A stretch of DNA of 64,000 nucleotides from Candidatus Latescibacterota bacterium. GTDB taxonomy: Bacteria > Latescibacterota > UBA2968 > GCA-2709665. A program made the position numbers and the translations under genes. The first letter of the stretch is position 1, and each line of letters starts with the position of its first letter. The DNA is taken from contig CAXXXF010000014.1 in NCBI GenBank assembly GCA_963667175.2, positions 224,001 through 288,000 on the forward strand, in the 5' to 3' direction. The notes beneath the pieces are model-generated. The model worked only from the letters and a program-made list of their open reading frames with translations, was not told the DNA's origin and made no database searches. Shown piece after piece: positions 15,030 to 61,260 of the stretch.

Positions 15030-15200
15030 AGACGATCAATCTCTATCAATTTACGGATCTGGTATTCGAGAACCATAGCAATTCATTCAAAAAACAATTC
15101 GTCAAGTTACCCCAGCGTAGGCAAGATGCTCTTGAAACTACGCTGGGGTAACTTTTGAATGGTACGCTTTCCGGCGGAAATGATCTTGAAACCCGAATTA
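15020..15200 (+). pseudogene. RelE/ParE-like toxin remnant with internal stop
   Basis: Frame from 15020 reads ...HSNSFKKQFVKLPQRRQDALETTLG*LLNG; no clear start codon; boundaries approximate. Confidence 0.45.
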
Positions 15201-15375
15201 TTCATGAAAGCTGGTGGGTTTGTTATATAATCGGTTGATTTTCAATAACATGAGTGGGGAATATAACGAAAACCCTGATTCGTCCGAAATCCAGTTGACC
15301 GGCGTCATGGCGGGGTGTCAGGCTGACGTGCAATATCGTTTATTTACGCCTCGTTTGGCAACTAACTTCAGACAC

Positions 15376-15607
15376 GGCTTTTTTCGTTTTTATCGTGTGT
15401 TTCGTAATTTCTGATGTTGGTTCTCTCGTGCCTTTGTCGCGCTTTTTGGTTTTCATCGTGTCGATCCTGTCCATCCATGTAAGTTCTGTTTTTGTGGATG
15501 ATTCAGAGTTGTAGCCTTTTTCGTGTATTTCGCGTGTTTCGTAGTTTCTGAAGTTCGTTTTCTTTCGCTTTTGGTTTCTATCCTGTCCATCCTGTCCATC
15601 CATGTTT
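15376..15607 (-). repeat. Alternating 9-bp-period repeats, A type (ACGAAACAC) and B type (CATGGATGGACAGGAT), in order A-B-A-B
   Basis: ttcgtgtatttcgcgtgtttcgtagttt and atcctgtccatcctgtccatccatg; A type also at 58405-58437, B type at 39124-39157 and 52526-52550. Confidence 0.8.
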
Positions 15608-15678
15608 GTTCCGTTTCATGAATTAATAGGAATAGACAATATGTACAGGAAGTATCGAATGAACCCGCTACACTGACC

Positions 15679-20084: not shown

Positions 20085-20842
<758 letters not shown>

Positions 20843-20856
20843 CATGGACGTTTCGC

Positions 20857-21726
20857 CTACCCCGGTTCGGATTCGCCGAGGATACGCAGCGCGTTCCGAT
20901 ACGTCATCTTGTCGTACGCGTCCCGTGGCAACGAAAGGCCCTGGAAGAAATCCATCAGCGCCGTGTCGAAATAGTCCCGACCCCACAGCAGTTTGTCCTG
21001 AAACTCGAGGAGGAATCTCTTTCCGACCGCGGGGTCGCGCTTAAGCGCATTCAGGGCCGAACCCGCCGAGAGGTCCGCCCACAGATTGTCGTACTGGCGC
21101 ATCAGTTCCCACAGTCTTCCTCCCGGAAGTACCGGCGCCCGCGGGTACGACTCTTTGTCATAGAGATCGTCTCCCGAGATGTGCGCCCAGAACCCCGGCG
21201 CGTGACCGATAAACGTGGTTTCCGGGCAGGCCGCGACCGCCCGCTCGAATGCCTCGATACTCCCCCCATACCAGTAGTTCGGTCTGGGATAGTTCCCCCG
21301 GCCATGATTGATGGGATAGTCGAGGTGGATCGTTATGGGCAGTTTCATTTCGGCGCAGGCGTTATAGAGCTGAATCGCGTCCGGATCGTCGAACAGGACC
21401 CGCACCTTCATCTCGCTGGCAACCTGAATGCCGTGTATCTCATGCGCCGCCCGCAGGCGGTCCGCCGCGTCGGGCCGTTTCGGATGCGGGAAATAGCCCA
21501 GCACGAAGCGGTCGCGCGCCTCCCTTCCCACCTGCAGCACGTCTTCCAGCGGAATGCCCACCCCGCCCGGAGGCAGGGCTTTGTGATAGGACGGATCGTA
21601 TTCGTCTTCCGGCGCCTCCCAGGTAAACAGCCACATCCTGTCGATGCCCTGTTCATCCATATTGTTCAAAATCCTCTTTGCATCGTAACCGTGCCAGTTC
21701 GGATGGTTGTGGGCGTCAATCAGCAT
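20857..21726 (-). CDS. Amidohydrolase_2 family protein
   Basis: IDAHNH, ITIHL, FIGHAPGFW, LLWGRDY, NALRIL. Confidence 0.88.
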   Translation of the reverse strand: MLIDAHNHPNWHGYDAKRILNNMDEQGIDRMWLFTWEAPEDEYDPSYHKALPPGGVGIPLEDVLQVGREARDRFVLGYFPHPKRPDAADRLRAAHEIHGIQVASEMKVRVLFDDPDAIQLYNACAEMKLPITIHLDYPINHGRGNYPRPNYWYGGSIEAFERAVAACPETTFIGHAPGFWAHISGDDLYDKESYPRAPVLPGGRLWELMRQYDNLWADLSAGSALNALKRDPAVGKRFLLEFQDKLLWGRDYFDTALMDFFQGLSLPRDAYDKMTYRNALRILGESEPG

Positions 21727-28775: not shown

Positions 28776-29029
28776 GAACCGCCTCTGTGAAGAAACATTG
28801 CGCCGTTGCCCTGTAACCCTCGCAGGCGTTCCTGGACGCTCGTGCTGGACGGACTAGCGAGGAAAAGCCCCTACCCGACGACCGGGCGGGCGAAGGGGAT
28901 TCCAGGCAGGTCTGTCTCACGGAGTCCCAGTCGTTCCGCCGTCTTCCTTTCGCTGTTTGTCTTTGATTTTGGCAGACGGCTGAATGCTGACAGCTGAAAG
29001 CTGCCTTTTGCTGCTTCTCGTCCCGCGAA

Positions 29030-48799: not shown

Positions 48800-48825
48800 A
48801 GGATCTCCTTAACCTGAATAATTCA

Positions 48826-50535
48826 CCTAAGGCGGCTTCGCTTTGCTCAGCCGCAACCAAAAAGGTGGTAGTCAAGAGCAGTTTGTTTTGTGGTATGAAA
48901 AACGGCGTTCGTCCTTTATGATGGTGGTCCCAACCGCCATCAACCCAAGGAGGAACGCCGTGAACGACTTCGTGGACCAATATAATGAAAAAATCAGTGG
49001 CGTGGTATCGTGTTTTGATCGGGTTTTGTTCAAGGGGTACCTGCCGCTGGGATTTGGCAATGCGATGGAGCGTTTCATGGGTAATCAGGGTTTTTTGTTG
49101 AAGGACTTCAAGCGTTTTGTGACGTCGCATTCCAAAACGATCAAAGCCCACGCGGAGGCGGTGGCGAGCAGGCACAAGCGCCCGTTCCTCTATCTCGACC
49201 GCAACACCGTCAGGAAAGAGGAGGAAGCGCGACGCATCGCCCAACGAGATGGGATCACCCGCGGCCTGGTCTGTGTGTTCCGCGCCGTGGAAGGCTGTCA
49301 GAGTTTCAAGCTGGTTCCAGGGGAAGGAAGGCCTCGCCTGCTCAACGCCCGGCGGAAGTGCCTGTGCTACTACTTCTACTATATCGACCGTGAGTTCGGG
49401 TTGCTGCATATCCGCATCCAGTCCTGGTTCCCCCTGGTGGTGCAGGTCTGTCTCAATGGCCACGAATACCTGGCGCGCAAGCTCGATAAAAACGGCATTG
49501 CCTATGAAAAAGCAGACAACGCGTTTCTATGGATCGACGACGTGGCCCGGGCGCAACGCTTTGCCGATCGTTTTGTCGAGAAGAATTGGCCGCGCATTCT
49601 CTCCGGGCTTGCCCGCAGGGTCAACCCCCTGCTCAAAGACCTGCTTTCGGGAATGGACTATTACTGGGTCGTTGACCAGGCTGAGTTCGCCACCGACGTG
49701 ATGTTCACAAGCCCCCACGCCCTGAAGGTGCTGTATGAAAATCTGCTCAGACATACGGTGCTGTGCTTCTCCCCCCAGGACATCCTGACCTTCCTGGGAC
49801 GCAAACTCCACGGCAACTTTCAGGGCGAAGTCCTCACGGACTTCAAAAACAAACGCCAACCCGGCGCACGGGTCAAACACCGGATGTGTGAGAACTGGAT
49901 GAAAATGTACGACAAACACGGGCGCGTACTACGCATAGAGACAGTGATCAACCATCCAAGGCAGTTCAAGGTCCGCCGCTGGGGCATACGCCAAGGACAA
50001 CGCGTGATGGGCTGGTATCCCATGGCCAAAGGCGTGGCCAACCTCTACCGCTATCGGGAAATCTCATTGAAGGCCAACCAACACTACCTTCATGCGCTGG
50101 CAGCAGCACCAGACACCGCGAAGAGCCGTCACAGCCTCACCACACTTGCCCGACCACGCAGGCACAGGGGGCGTACCTATCGGGGCTTCAATCCCGCCGA
50201 CACCCGCGACCTCGACCTCTTCACCGCCGTCCTGAAAGGCGAACACGCCCTGATGGGCTTCCGCAATCGGGACATCCGAAAACACCTCTTCAAACAACCC
50301 AGAACCCTCGACCAGCGCCGACGGCAGGCCAACGCCGTCAGCCGACTTCTCAAACGCCTACACGTCCGAGGCCTGATCGCCAAAATCCCACGGTCCAGAA
50401 GATGGCGCGTCACACAGGCCGGACACGTCACACTCGCGACTTCACTGACACTATACCACAAGCACACAAACCCTATCCAAGCAGCATGAACAAACTTCTA
50501 CGCATCTTGCGTTGAAGTCTTACTGTAAGACTCTA
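48826..50535 (+). mobile_element. Putative IS-like element with terminal hairpins and no terminal inverted repeats (boundaries approximate)
   Basis: gcggct / agccgc hairpin at 48832-48854; agtcttac-t-gtaagact palindrome at 50516-50532; single large basic ORF. Confidence 0.55.
48960..50489 (+). CDS. 509-aa transposase-like protein with KMYDK..LRIET motif and C-terminal winged helix
   Basis: AAGGAGG RBS before GTG 48960; SCFDRVLFKG, YYFYYIDREFG, GHEY, KMYDK, GFRNRD, LKRLHVRGLIAKIPRSRRWRVT. Confidence 0.7.
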   Translation: MNDFVDQYNEKISGVVSCFDRVLFKGYLPLGFGNAMERFMGNQGFLLKDFKRFVTSHSKTIKAHAEAVASRHKRPFLYLDRNTVRKEEEARRIAQRDGITRGLVCVFRAVEGCQSFKLVPGEGRPRLLNARRKCLCYYFYYIDREFGLLHIRIQSWFPLVVQVCLNGHEYLARKLDKNGIAYEKADNAFLWIDDVARAQRFADRFVEKNWPRILSGLARRVNPLLKDLLSGMDYYWVVDQAEFATDVMFTSPHALKVLYENLLRHTVLCFSPQDILTFLGRKLHGNFQGEVLTDFKNKRQPGARVKHRMCENWMKMYDKHGRVLRIETVINHPRQFKVRRWGIRQGQRVMGWYPMAKGVANLYRYREISLKANQHYLHALAAAPDTAKSRHSLTTLARPRRHRGRTYRGFNPADTRDLDLFTAVLKGEHALMGFRNRDIRKHLFKQPRTLDQRRRQANAVSRLLKRLHVRGLIAKIPRSRRWRVTQAGHVTLATSLTLYHKHTNPIQAA

Positions 50536-50547
50536 AACATTAACTAA

Positions 50548-52525
50548 GTAGAGTCGAGATGTGGCGCGGTGGTTTAGGAGTGGCCTATCTGTTTCCGCCC
50601 CTTTCGTCTGGCGGTGCCTCAATAGCCGCTCCGTGCTCCGTTTCCACGTCCCGCTCATCGAACCGGACGTGCGGATTTACCGCATCCGGCTCTCGGACAA
50701 GGAGTCATGCGTTCGCCCACGGAAGGTTGCGCGCCTGTACTTCCAGCCGGGTCAGGCCCAACGTGTTGTAGAGGACCTGGTCGTGGAAGCGTGACCTTCC
50801 CTTTCCCGGTATTCGGTACTTGTTGCACAACCACCAGCGGAGCCGTTTCCGGGTGTGGCTGTCCACACTCCGATAGGCTTTGCTGGCCAGACCAAGACGG
50901 AAGTAGTTGCCCCACCCTGCCAGCATTCGGTTCAGGTGGGCAATCCGTTCTTGATGGTCTTTCAGCAACCACCGGCGCGCCGTTGCCTCGCTGATGGCCC
51001 GGCAGATGTGCCGGATGGCCTTCTTTGCCGGGCGCGTGCCGATATAGGCCTTTCCCGTCTTTGGCGAGTAACAGCGGCCGATGGTGTAGCCCAGAAAGTC
51101 AAATCGTCCTTCCGGGAGCGTGCATATGCCCGTCTTCTGCTCGTTCACCGTCAACTTAAGCGCTTTCATGATGGATCGCATCGCACGCATCGCTTCTTCT
51201 GCACTGCCGCGACAGCAGATCACAAAATCATCCGCGTAGTTGACAATATGAGCCTCCAGACGTTGCTGATGTCCCCGAAATTGCCATCCCAGAATGAACC
51301 GCCGCATATACAGGTTCGCCAACAGCGGGGAGATCGGGGCGCCTTGCGGTGTCCCCCTTCCCTGATCCTTGTTCGGCGTCGCTCGACGTTTGCGGCCCCG
51401 CTTGTCGGTCTCCTCAATCGGCGCGGTCAGCCACAGCTTGATCAGGCGCAGCATACGCCCGTCACTGATGCGTCGCGCCACCGATTTCATCAACTCGGCA
51501 TGCGGGATCGTGTCGAAGTAGCCGCTCAAGTCGGCGTCGATCACCTGCGTATGGCCGCGGCTCACCAGACTGTGAACCGCATTGATGGCGTCGTGCGCAC
51601 TCCGTTTTGGGCGATACGCATACTGTTCCGCCGGCAGGTCCGCCTCAAAGATCGGCTCCAAGACCAGCATCGCCGCGGTTTGCACCACCCGATCCTTCAC
51701 CGTCGGGATGCCCAACGGCCTTTGCTTCCCGTTCGGCTTGGGGATATATACCCGACGGATCGGAGACACCCGATACGATTTGCTCCTTACGGCTTCCGAC
51801 AGTTCGCCTAACCACCGCTTTTGCCCGTATGACTCGATATCCGCAAACGTCTCGCCGTCCGCGCCCGCCGCGCCGCCGTTGGCCTTGCAGCAGCGGTACG
51901 CATAAAGCAGGATGTCCTCGCGATATACTTTGTCATACAGCGCGTAGAATCGGTAGCCGGGCGATTCCTTCGCTTTGGCATGCAACGTCTTCTGCAACTT
52001 CCGAACCTTTTCCGGAGGTCTTAGGCTCATGCCAATCTCCAGGCTCTCGCTCCTTTGACGTTGCCCTTGAACCAAGGCCCCTTCCCTCCACCGGCATTAC
52101 CCGGCTTCTCGGGTACTACGGGCCTCTCCGCCACCCCACACGGCCCGGCCTGACCCTCACGGGCGTCCGGTTGGTGTCTTTACACCACCGAGGGGGCTTC
52201 CCGTGTTGCGTCGGAACTCCTTGTATACGTGCCTTCGCCATTACCCCGGCGGGACCGTTGGATGCGCGCGTTGCTCTCTTTTTCCAACGACGGCGGCCTT
52301 CCCCGATCCATGGGCGGGTCGGCTCCCGCATTACCTTTTTCGAGGCCTGCTCAGCGTTCACTCACGTTTCGGCCCGCATACTCGCCAGGTCGCCTTGCGA
52401 CCCTCTACACCGGAGGCTTCGGAGATGTCGTTGCCTACGTCCCCGCTCCGATTGCTACCGACCGCAGCAACACTTGTCGGGTGGGACTCTCACCCACTGA
52501 AGTTCCGCGCCTTTTCACGGCGCAC
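50548..52525 (-). mobile_element. Group II intron (1978 nt) encoding an RT/maturase
   Basis: 5' GTGCG at 52525, domain V GAGCCGGATGCGGTAAATCCGCACGTCCGGTTC, 3' CGACTCTAC at 50548. Confidence 0.95.
50705..52030 (-). CDS. ltrA: Group II intron reverse transcriptase/maturase lacking an endonuclease domain
   Basis: RPLGIPTVKDRVVQ, DADLSGYFD, GTPQGAPISPLLAN, YADD, FDFLG, GWGNYF; ends after the X domain. Confidence 0.96.
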   Translation of the reverse strand: MSLRPPEKVRKLQKTLHAKAKESPGYRFYALYDKVYREDILLYAYRCCKANGGAAGADGETFADIESYGQKRWLGELSEAVRSKSYRVSPIRRVYIPKPNGKQRPLGIPTVKDRVVQTAAMLVLEPIFEADLPAEQYAYRPKRSAHDAINAVHSLVSRGHTQVIDADLSGYFDTIPHAELMKSVARRISDGRMLRLIKLWLTAPIEETDKRGRKRRATPNKDQGRGTPQGAPISPLLANLYMRRFILGWQFRGHQQRLEAHIVNYADDFVICCRGSAEEAMRAMRSIMKALKLTVNEQKTGICTLPEGRFDFLGYTIGRCYSPKTGKAYIGTRPAKKAIRHICRAISEATARRWLLKDHQERIAHLNRMLAGWGNYFRLGLASKAYRSVDSHTRKRLRWWLCNKYRIPGKGRSRFHDQVLYNTLGLTRLEVQARNLPWANA

Positions 52526-52628
52526 CATGGATGGGCAGGATGAACAGGATAAAGACCAAAGAGCAGGACAAATGCTCACGATTCCGGGCAAAACCGATGG
52601 ATCCATACCTCCGTCCGCGGCGCCACAC

Positions 52629-52652
52629 GGTCGGTTCGCGAACCGCCCCTAC
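52629..52652 (-). repeat. GTAG-type REP
   Basis: Minus strand gtaggggcggttcgcgaaccgacc. Confidence 0.65.
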
Positions 52653-52675
52653 GAAAAAACGGTCTCTCCGTTTGG

Positions 52676-52809
52676 CTCCCCCTCTCCCCTTGGGATACGG
52701 GGCCGGGGGGAGAGGTCGCGCACGAGCGGAGAGATATGGATGTTGAATTTGATCTTGGAATTTGACTCAAGCTGACTGCTGACCGCTGACCGCTGAAAGC
52801 TGATAGCTG
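52676..52809 (-). repeat. CCCCTCTCC element plus heptamer array ending GCTTGAGTCAA
   Basis: Reverse-complement arrangement of 567-776. Confidence 0.7.
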
Positions 52810-52903
52810 TTTTTCGACTTGGGAAACGTGATTCGCCTTCGTATCTTGTGGGCGCACTCTTCCGCGGTTTTGTGCACGTTGACCTTCAACAAGGAGATCA
52901 TCG

Positions 52904-53929
52904 ATGAAACGGATGACCATTCGTTCGCTTTTCCTTGCGGTGGCCGGGTTTGCCATTACCGGGCTCAGTCACGCAGGCACACTTGACGACGTACGGGCGA
53001 GAGGGCACCTTCAATGCGGCATCAACACAGGGTTGGCGGGCTTTGCTTTTACGGACGATCAAGGGAACTGGAGAGGATTTGACGTCGCGCTGTGTAAAGG
53101 CGTTGCGGCAGCGGTATTTGGCGACGCATCAAAGGTCAAATACACCAACCTGACTGGAAAGACCCGTTTTGAGGCGCTTAAGGCAGGTGAAATTGACGTC
53201 CTCTCGAGGAACACGACGTGGACGTACAGTCGGGACGTCGATCTCAAACTGACTTTTCTGGGCGTGAGTTTCTACGACGGCCAGGGGTTTATGGTTCCCG
53301 CATCGTTAGGCGTCTCCAGCGCAACCGAACTCAGTGGCGCTTCGGTGTGCATCCAGACCGGTACGACGACGGAACTGAACCTGGCCGACTATTTCCGTCG
53401 CAACGATATGAACTACGAGCCTGTTCCAATCGAATCGAATGAAGAAGCGCGTCAGAATTACCTGAGCGGACGATGCGACGTCTATACGACGGACCGTTCG
53501 GGACTTGCCGCAACTCGCGCAGCCCTGGACAATCCCGATGACCACGTCGTCCTGCCGGAGACCATATCCAAAGAACCCCTGGGGCCACTCGTTCGACACG
53601 GCGATGACGAATGGGGTGACGTGGTTCGCTGGGTACTGAACGTTCTGATCATCGCTGAAGAAAAGGGGATCACTTCAGACAACGTCGCTGAAATAGCCGG
53701 TCAGATGAGCAAGGACGCTGAAATCAACAGAATGCTCGGCTCTGAGGGCGAATACGGCGCAATGCTCGGACTGAGCCCGGACTGGGCAGTTAACGTCATT
53801 TCTTCGGTTGGCAACTACGGCCAGATATTCGAACGATATCTCGGTGTGAAAACCGACATCGGACTTGAACGAGGCGTGAATGCTCTGTGGACCGATGGCG
53901 GCTTGCTGTACGCTCCTCCGTACCGCTAA
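52904..53929 (+). CDS. aapJ: General L-amino acid ABC transporter substrate-binding protein
   Basis: Signal peptide; RNTTWT, YDGQGF, GTTTE, ISKEPLGP, VGNYG, LLYAPP. Confidence 0.93.
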   Translation: MKRMTIRSLFLAVAGFAITGLSHAGTLDDVRARGHLQCGINTGLAGFAFTDDQGNWRGFDVALCKGVAAAVFGDASKVKYTNLTGKTRFEALKAGEIDVLSRNTTWTYSRDVDLKLTFLGVSFYDGQGFMVPASLGVSSATELSGASVCIQTGTTTELNLADYFRRNDMNYEPVPIESNEEARQNYLSGRCDVYTTDRSGLAATRAALDNPDDHVVLPETISKEPLGPLVRHGDDEWGDVVRWVLNVLIIAEEKGITSDNVAEIAGQMSKDAEINRMLGSEGEYGAMLGLSPDWAVNVISSVGNYGQIFERYLGVKTDIGLERGVNALWTDGGLLYAPPYR

Positions 53930-54015
53930 GAAGATAGTGCATGCAATTTGTATGCGCCAACATTGTTCGAGCCCCGACAGAGAAAATTCATCGATTGTTT
54001 TTCCGTGTGAGAGTT

Positions 54016-61050: not shown

Positions 61051-61260
61051 GCAGTGGTCAGTGGTCAGTGGTCAGTTAAAGGCGGTGAGAGGGTAGACGT
61101 TAGACGTGAGATGATATGATTGCGCCGTGCGGTTTCATTGCTTGCCAAAGGCATATAGGAACATCCAGTCAGGCAATGACGTCTTCTACCGTCTCCCGTC
61201 TCACCGATTTCAGGCGCCCTCACCTCCCGGCCACGTAAAGGCAGTGGTCAATGGTCAGTG
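61051..61260. repeat. Cluster of heptamer arrays (CAGTGGT; AGACGTG with inverted partner)
   Basis: cagtggtcagtggtcagtggtcagt; gtagacgttagacgtgaga vs ctaccgtctcccgtctcacc. Confidence 0.65.

Follow-up and report, generated by a model that had tools for sequence, protein, structure and literature searches.

Group II introns paired with short dispersed repeats in a Latescibacterota genome

In the genome of a Candidatus Latescibacterota bacterium (assembly GCA_963667175.2, 5.52 Mb in 18 contigs; here G000), we found a family of group II introns of which 21 of 26 copies lie in short dispersed repeats, each of three intron subfamilies being matched with a repeat of its own. Our description is centred on a window of 64,000 nucleotides (nt), positions 224001-288000 of contig C14 (CAXXXF010000014.1), in which a full-length intron encoding a reverse transcriptase (RT) is flanked on its 5' side by a copy of a repeat with a 9-bp period. 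Based on the sequences, the whole situation is very probably explained by ordinary retrohoming of the IIB type into dispersed repeats.

Intron anatomy, subfamilies and exon pairing

The window intron has the landmarks of a mobile bacterial group II intron ribozyme, that is, a GUGYG start, a core of domains I-IV, a domain V, a domain VI with a bulged A and a 3' end of the form AY (here UAC). On the minus strand it runs from GUGCG at 52525 to CUCUAC at 50548, and two Rfam models match it above their cut-offs: RF02003 (D1-D4; 52499-52362, 102 bits, cut-off 49) and RF00029 (D5/D6; 50694-50548, 41.6 bits, cut-off 40). The usual size of domain VI is 30-45 nt, and the one found here is more than twice as long (Table 1). 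In a consensus structure of this domain drawn from 33 sequences, 12 of the 26 predicted pairs show compensatory changes. The extension, seen also at 32 related loci in their 3' ends, is kept across phyla and includes invariant GGAAACGG and CGAAAG segments. It is placed inside domain VI, whereas the introns of PMC3261151 have 3' extensions after that domain.

The open reading frame (ORF) inside domain IV encodes a protein of 441 amino acids (aa) with a YADD motif and with matches to RVT_1 (2.5e-36) and GIIM (4.6e-13). No further Pfam family, and no HNH domain, was found in it, and its C-terminus lies ~30 residues past GIIM, leaving no DNA-binding and endonuclease (D/En) region. Since nothing follows RVT_1 and GIIM, the protein has no endonuclease domain. 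Its nearest solved relative is the GsI-IIC RT (1e-53). Having no D/En region after the X domain, it belongs with the endonuclease-less lineages, which are classes C, D, E and F (PMC3552965). The hosts of its relatives (Acidobacteriota, Planctomycetota, Myxococcota, Rhodocyclaceae) overlap the class F hosts of the same study, an overlap that is a lead only.

Table 1. Coordinates of the features in the window, with the basis of each assignment
Feature	Position	Strand	Basis
Full-length group II intron, subfamily A, 1978 nt	50548..52525	-	Rfam matches; boundaries from alignment of 26 genomic copies and differing flanks
Domain V	50660..50694	-	RF00029 alignment; hairpin recovered by folding
Extended domain VI, ~105 nt, bulged A at 50554	50551..50656	-	Fold z = -3.67; bulged A in fold and consensus structure
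Intron-encoded protein, 441 aa, RT and maturase domains, no endonuclease domain	50705..52030	-	Pfam
EBS1, CAUGGAU, terminal loop of 4-bp stem	52306..52312	-	Stem covariation; EBS1-IBS1 covariation
IBS1, AUCCAUG	52526..52532	-	7-bp complementarity to EBS1
EBS2 region, AAAAAGGUAAU, 11-nt 5' bulge between two helices	52330..52340	-	Variable in sequence; flanked by helices with covariation support
EBS3 (A), in GGGGUA[A]U, internal loop	52241..52241	-	Pairs with first 3'-exon base
5' exon, copy of 9-bp-period dispersed repeat (module 2), IBS1 at its end	52526..52595	-	Sequence reading; motif 45 times in genome
3' exon remnant TTAGTTAATGT, IBS3 = T at 50547, cut off by insertion-sequence-like element	50537..50547	-	T[ATG]AGTT form common to 9/9 occupied repeat sites
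ORF-less copy, subfamily A, 758 nt, non-repeat site, 5' exon ending GTCCATG	20085..20842	-	Rfam matches; alignment of genomic copies
Empty homing site, ATCCATG then T, in repeat copy	15473..15480	+	Sequence reading
Empty homing site, ATCCATG then T, in repeat copy	15598..15605	+	Sequence reading
Composite repeat, module 1 (~20 copies) and module 2 (~50 copies), 438 bp, 17-nt inverted ends	15193..15630	+	BLAST coverage

A BLAST search with the intron revealed 26 complete copies and two fragments in the assembly, and in the alignment of domain I the complete copies fell into three subfamilies, each with its own loop of exon-binding site 1 (EBS1). Subfamily A (12 copies, loop CCCAUGGAU) is made up of four full-length and eight ORF-less introns of 758-762 nt, inserted after 5' exons ending in (A/G)TCCATG. 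The six copies of subfamily B are all full-length, with the loop CCUGAAUUU and 5' exons ending in ATTCA, and the eight of subfamily C are all ORF-less, with the loop AUUGUCAGC and 5' exons ending in GCTGACA. One subfamily C copy (C13:174459-175517) measures 1059 nt against 761 nt, due to ~300 extra internal bases. The 441-aa ORF is intact in all ten full-length copies, and no group II RT other than these ten was found in the assembly.

The initial annotation of the window had proposed that a stem-loop of domain I displays CAUGGAU, the exact complement of ATCCATG, and acts as EBS1. The stem-loop is present in both window introns, in the context CCCG-CCCAUGGAU-CGGG, and in the ORF-less copy CAUGGAU lies at 20628-20622. 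For its comparative study, 80 related loci were gathered from other genomes by means of the protein, whose closest relatives come from three Candidatus Latescibacterota metagenome-assembled genomes (82-91% aa identity) and whose other relatives are spread across many phyla. In an alignment of domain I from 34 diverse sequences, the five helices around the loop (26 pairs) are paired in 96.9% of the cells and show compensatory changes in 15 of the 26 pairs, including two covarying pairs in the 4-bp stem that the loop caps. None of 500 shuffles matched these values, and sliding the partner columns lowered pairing to 33-53%.

The loop also covaries with the exon. Each subfamily pairs with the intron-binding site 1 (IBS1) at the end of its own 5' exon: CAUGGAU with AUCCAUG in A, UGAAU with AUUCA in B and UGUCAGC with GCUGACA in C. 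Among 32 relatives, EBS1 pairs with the own 5' exon over 5.84 bases on average, against 2.46 when the exons are swapped, a value not reached in any of 2000 shuffles. Judged from this comparative evidence, the loop CAUGGAU is EBS1, as had been proposed.

A similar relation holds on the 3' side, where 31 of the 32 relatives (27 Watson-Crick) have the EBS3 base paired with the base that opens the 3' exon, against 14.1 expected, again with none of 2000 shuffles as high. Within the genome this base follows the exon: subfamily A has A opposite T, subfamily B has G opposite C or T, and subfamily C has U opposite A; the T that the initial annotation had seen at the start of the 3' exon of both window introns stands at 50547 and 20084. 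The EBS2 bulge gives a weaker signal across the family, pairing with positions -19 to -8 of the 5' exon over 4.19 bases on average against 3.60 in shuffles (1 of 2000 as high). Thus the statement that there is no shared IBS2 was roughly right as far as the short pairing of subfamily A is concerned, yet an EBS2 bulge could be located (Table 1). GCAGG was rejected as EBS2: it is invariant across the family and lies in the internal loop opposite EBS3.

IIB-type target recognition combines an EBS1 in a terminal loop that pairs with the last 5'-exon bases, an EBS3 in an internal loop that pairs with the first 3'-exon base, and an EBS2-IBS2 pairing upstream of IBS1; the first two are seen here, and of the third there is the weak signal just given. 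From its sequence, the locus is a complete, active-looking group II intron with an intact RT/maturase, endonuclease-less and in all likelihood with IIB-type target recognition (Rfam D1D4-4 type).

Target repeats and the arrival of the introns

On the minus strand, the 5' exon at 52526-52550 reads ATCCTGTTCATCCTGCCCATCCATG, a copy of the repeat ending in ATCCATG, just as the initial annotation had it, and the two uninterrupted junctions that it had listed in other repeat copies of the window are both present (Table 1). The genome has 45 occurrences of the repeat motif YATCCTGNNYATCCATG and none of the same pattern read backwards. A looser pattern, CCT-N4-ATCCATG followed by T or by an intron, has 52 genomic matches, 45 of which fit the stricter one. 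Nine of the 12 subfamily A introns are inserted in the motif, although repeat copies make up only 45 of the 699 ATCCATG sites (binomial p = 3.5e-9; Fisher test of occupied against empty sites, p = 8e-11). The enrichment over all such sites that the initial annotation had suggested looking for is therefore clear. The remaining 36 repeat sites are empty, and only one of the 654 ATCCATG sites outside repeats is occupied. Moreover, the occupied repeat sites are alike beyond IBS1: they share CCT at -14 to -12, and T[ATG]AGTT follows at +1 to +6 in 9/9 of them against 12/36 of the empty ones (p = 3e-4), which suggests that bases past IBS3 matter in this genome.

The same concentration in repeats might result from survivorship, if retrotransposition reached many TCCATG-like sites and only harmless insertions in intergenic repeats persisted. 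In fact, on a crude ORF map the empty repeat copies are nearly all intergenic, and three subfamily A copies at non-repeat sites, all at (A/G)TCCATG with a TAG ~15 nt upstream, tell us that ectopic insertion does occur. One of these is the ORF-less window copy, correctly placed outside a repeat by the initial annotation, which sits in a likewise harmless place, 14 nt past the TAG stop of a 289-aa ORF (20857-21726) and followed by a hairpin at 20073-20048. Nevertheless, about 14% of the genome is non-ORF on the same crude map, of the many non-repeat ATCCATG sites a single one was taken, the occupied sites resemble each other in the positions beyond IBS1 just described, and the near-perfect pairing of EBS1 and EBS3 is what retrohoming would be expected to produce. 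We consider survivorship an unlikely source of the pattern.

Introns of class C (IIC) recognise a DNA stem-loop, placed in the 5' exon directly before IBS1, and an IBS1 that is very short. A IIC-like terminator target was considered for the present introns and rejected, given that the 45 repeat 5' exons have no significant hairpin (mean fold z = -0.23, with 4/45 below -1.5). The 7-nt IBS1 and the absence of a 5'-exon hairpin exclude class C behaviour.

Among the related loci L005-L079, we observed in the 5' exon (region -18 to -10) a TA(A/G) triplet at about -16 to -14, often followed by CCYG, in 19 of 35 non-redundant targets, compared with 3.2% of upstream control windows of 6 nt. Homing to stop codons was rejected as its meaning: a TA(A/G) at -18 to -13 ends a long ORF (at least 200 codons) in only four of the loci examined, and it is accordingly read as a recognition motif and not as stop-codon targeting. 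At the ORF-less window copy the triplet is a stop codon too, that of the 289-aa ORF. The TA(A/G)...CCYG motif may be a distal target motif of this intron type that is read by the protein. The 9-bp repeat unit YATCCTG resembles it.

The sister subfamilies have dispersed targets of their own. Four of the six subfamily B copies are inserted at CCTGAA(A/T)TATTCA followed by (T/C)GAAAACCGGTGG, which is the left edge of a ~180-bp repeat (module 1); 16 such sites were counted, 12 of them empty. All eight subfamily C copies are in one ~155-bp repeat (at one site truncated on its 5' side), of which eight further copies are empty. Module 1 and the 9-bp-period module 2 are joined in composites such as that at 15193-15630, whose arms (15193-15209 and 15614-15630) are 82% complementary and which contains an empty subfamily-B-type site, ATTCA followed by TGAAA, at 15200-15209. 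Common ATTCATGAAA ends were read in seven composites, and a single composite can hold a subfamily B intron at its left end and a subfamily A site near its right end. The subfamily C target (~155 bp, ~16 elements; L111:139-293, contig C17) likewise has inverted ends, TTATTACGGGGAGCA and TGCTCCTGGTAATAA, of 15 nt and 87% complementary. Its 3' part contains CCACTG(N) units with a 7-bp period, and a similar heptamer array stands alone at 61052-61076 of the window. Both the subfamily C target and the A/B composite are short, non-coding, multi-copy and bounded by terminal inverted repeats; because of these bounding inverted repeats, the targets look like MITEs (miniature inverted-repeat transposable elements).

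Module 1 of the window composite contains a sigma-70-like site, ATGAAA-16-TATAAT (10/12 matches), at 15204-15231 on the plus strand, facing the gene downstream and the 9-bp array. Most module-1 copies keep its -10-like hexamer (TATAAT or TGTAAT), and subfamily B introns insert at a point that overlaps its -35-like hexamer. One could then regard the repeats as host regulatory modules, promoters or 5' untranslated regions, in whose transcripts the introns are tolerated or co-opted; the direction of the sigma-70-like site, which reads towards the A site, the retention of its -10-like hexamer and that of the repeat motif in four genomes would fit such a role. However, the repeats lie in mixed orientation relative to neighbouring ORFs, a promoter scan gave a weak result (three matches, with 1.0 +/- 1.0 in shuffles), and from their terminal inverted repeats they would seem to be of transposon-like origin. 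Furthermore, such a role would concern the nature of the repeat and would leave the route by which the intron arrived unaffected. As an account of the association it is hardly credible.

The relative age of introns and surroundings bears on that route. Introns of the same subfamily are 98.7-99.9% identical, whereas identity in the 60 nt on their 5' side is 55-72% in A, 55% in B and 81% in C, and in the 40 nt on their 3' side 50-60%, 62% and 91%, respectively. Near-identical introns in diverged flanks mean that the introns are much younger than the surrounding repeat copies. The initial annotation had called the repeat a renewable safe harbour: the safe harbour is in keeping with the nearly exclusively intergenic position of the empty copies on the crude map, while renewable finds no support in these data, the repeat copies being old.

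These data also speak to the possibility that a single intron inserted into a repeat that was subsequently transposed or duplicated with the intron inside. Such hitch-hiking would agree with the dispersal of the repeats and their bounding inverted repeats, and in subfamily C the flanks are indeed fairly alike (81-91%). It is contradicted by the contrast between the intron identities and the immediate flanks in A and B, by the number and sequence of the 9-bp units, which vary among the occupied copies, by three A and two B copies outside repeats whose sites are alike in the IBS motifs only, and by the occurrence of the same repeat both with and without an intron. We therefore hold hitch-hiking to be very improbable; the sequences indicate that the association with repeats goes back to recent separate insertions.

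Related genomes, which the initial annotation had proposed to search, gave a similar picture. In G001, all seven examined copies with a CAUGGAU loop are in TATCCTG-type repeats (11 of the 19 matches in this genome entered the examination). G002 has eight ORF-less introns of 756 nt (L091, L094, L097, L100, L102, L105, L107 and L109) with the EBS1 loop GCUUGCGAA, all in a common site that reads TAACCT(T/C)GATTCGC(A/T)A before the intron and TT(C/T)TTC(G/C)GGGA(A/C)GTAAAA(C/T)CGAAT after it. Further upstream the sequence is unique to each copy, so that the target is another dispersed repeat with its left edge at about -17. In G003 the repeat motif is found in 31 copies and this EBS1 in none of the four parsed introns, so that the repeat family, whose motif is kept in four genomes, appears to be older and more widely spread than the intron specificity.

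Retrohoming into the repeats may be envisaged as follows. The excised intron RNA, together with the 441-aa RT/maturase, would reverse-splice into DNA by the endonuclease-less route of IIB-type introns. The site would be chosen through the pairing of EBS1 (CAUGGAU) with ATCCATG and of the EBS3 A with the next T, with a weak EBS2 contact near CCT at -14 to -12, and protein contacts with the flanks, to TA-CCYG around -17 to -10 and to AGTT at +3 to +6, would probably help. This full site is almost confined to one intergenic, inverted-repeat-bounded (MITE-like) repeat family, where the intron would consequently accumulate; with its full site nearly only in a dispersed repeat, the intron could spread to many loci at little cost to the host, and would benefit from the repeat as a place where landing does no harm. 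Through a changed EBS1 and EBS3, the two sister lineages would have gained access to two further dispersed repeat families. The ORF-less derivatives (758-762 nt), which have no protein of their own, are presumably spliced and mobilised in trans by the ten intact proteins.

Some of our results weigh against this account. A minimum-free-energy fold of the single domain I segment, proposed by the initial annotation to confirm the loop, did not recover the EBS1 hairpin but an alternative one (z = +1.59), and the EBS1 assignment thus rests on comparative evidence. The EBS2 of subfamily A pairs with the repeat over 3-4 bp only, 12 repeat sites whose 3' exon has the favoured form T[ATG]AGTT are still empty, and in G001 three of the four examined 3' exons are not T[ATG]AGTT. 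No transposase matching the repeats was found, in the course of work that included no systematic search for one, so that the mobility of the repeats is conjectural at most. In addition, 15 of the 26 copies are co-oriented with the local GC skew, that is, with no visible replication-strand bias, on contigs where the skew is noisy and patchy; in endonuclease-less introns such as RmInt1 a bias would be expected. Finally, among the contigs of four public runs compared with the locus (X1, X3, X6 and X18) there was no exon-exon or empty-site joint; the short-read contigs break in the intron.

In the same comparison, one DNA contig skips 50694-52075, which is consistent with ORF-less copies. The RNA run contains intron pieces that are only 90-95% alike and cannot show transcription of the window copy. 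Recent activity of the introns is suggested by the high identity of the copies in diverged flanks. Three runs labelled as sponge metagenomes (X1, X3 and X6) contain pieces identical or nearly identical to window positions 49000-54000, such as pieces of 975 and 347 nt without differences in X1. This is a hint at the habitat, with the qualification that the best run may be the source sample of the assembly and that the long pieces fall mostly on a multi-copy element next to the intron.

Neighbouring element and other short repeats

That element, which resembles an insertion sequence (IS), occupies 48826-50536 on the plus strand (1711 bp), 11 bp downstream of the 3' splice site of the intron. It is present in at least ten copies with 91-99.9% DNA identity, some of them truncated. 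The 548-aa protein that it encodes (48843-50489) has no counterpart among the Pfam and NCBIfam families. In the copy ends that were read, neither terminal inverted repeats nor an obvious target duplication is visible. The left junction of the element is placed exactly at the end of TTAACCTGAATAATTCA (48810-48825), a homing sequence of the subfamily B type, whereas the other copies have unrelated flanks, one of them lying inside a module-2 repeat on contig C18. The 548-aa ORF was rejected as a transposase of the target repeats: the ends of the element are different, its insertion sites vary, and its protein matches none of the families mentioned.

The genome is rich in several families of short dispersed repeats. 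In the window, arrays of 7-bp units are found at 52770-52809, 28975-29003 and 641-673 (AGCTGAC x5.7, GCTGAAA x3.6 and a 14-bp unit). Just upstream of the repeat that contains the intron, at 52640-52720, there is a G/C-rich inverted segment (ccccctctcccc...ggggggagagg), and similar G/C-rich segments adjoin heptamer arrays elsewhere in the genome.

Comparison with known systems

Three modes of targeting have been distinguished for bacterial group II introns, namely homing sites, terminators and attC (PMC4424553). The present case is of the first kind, the homing site lying within a repeat. In Thermosynechococcus elongatus, the TeI3/TeI4 introns (Mohr, Ghanem and Lambowitz 2010, PMC2882425) also exist in tens of related copies (28 there, 26 here), with families split by EBS1/2/3, many ORF-less copies that rely on the proteins of other copies, a preference for intergenic sites or other mobile DNA, and retrotransposition as the reading of a few sites with poor matches. 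Their targets, however, are other introns and an IS200-family element, and not inverted-repeat-bounded short non-coding repeats. The introns described here also differ in RNA type (Rfam D1D4-4 with an extended domain VI) and in their Latescibacterota-like host, to which the thermophily argument does not apply, and they are known from sequence alone.

RmInt1 of Sinorhizobium and its relatives (PMC1802570, PMC4181065, PMC4615759) share with the present introns an endonuclease-less protein, a homing site in a multi-copy mobile element (ISRm2011-2) and diverged target specificities. In that case the target is an insertion sequence instead of a non-coding repeat, and a bias of insertion to the lagging-strand template is reported, of which none was detectable among our copies on a patchy skew.

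Class C introns at terminators and attC (PMC4424553) likewise use a recurrent, many-copy non-coding feature as landing site, and differ from ours in the recognition already discussed, which here involves a 7-bp IBS1 and EBS3 in place of a hairpin. The nested introns of Methanosarcina acetivorans (PMC4424553) home repeatedly and site-specifically into selfish DNA, a "perpetual homing site", with another group II intron as the target there and a separate repeat family here. An intron of Pseudomonas putida KT2440 (Tobes and Pareja 2006, PMC1525189) is found near repetitive extragenic palindromic (REP) elements, that is, short extragenic repeats as in our case, but only 2/9 of its copies are so associated, compared with 21/26 here under explicit pairing rules. 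With this exception, we found no paper on group II introns homing into MITEs or REP-like repeats in a literature search that covered neither subscription journals nor supplementary files.

The strategy itself, divergence of specificity and insertion into other mobile DNA, is thus already published for Thermosynechococcus and RmInt1, and the understanding of group II intron biology is unchanged by our data. What is new is the kind of target (inverted-repeat-bounded short non-coding repeats), the fact that three specificities and three repeats correspond one to one, and the host lineage. A broader scenario, to which we assign somewhat less than an even chance, is that one endonuclease-less lineage radiated within a Latescibacterota-like clade into variants each dedicated to one MITE-like repeat (at least three in this genome and more in G001 and G002), while ORF-less forms parasitise the coding copies. 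If so, repeat, intron and ORF-less intron would form a three-tier nest of selfish elements, and retargeting would proceed mainly by changes in EBS1 and EBS3 with the distal TA-CCYG contact kept. Should the distal motif be an anchor read by the protein throughout the RNA class, it would account for the pre-adaptation of the 9-bp unit YATCCTGNN as a target and would provide a simple natural set of rules for reprogramming introns of this type.

With 26 copies, three EBS1/EBS3 codes, empty and filled targets and a second genome, the family represents a natural data set on the harmless multiplication of group II introns. Its compact ORF-less forms and intact endonuclease-less RTs are possible material for targeting or RT studies. 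For the biology of these elements, the known principle of diverging in specificity and landing in selfish DNA is extended to repeats that are short and non-coding, and to an uncultured phylum of which little is known.

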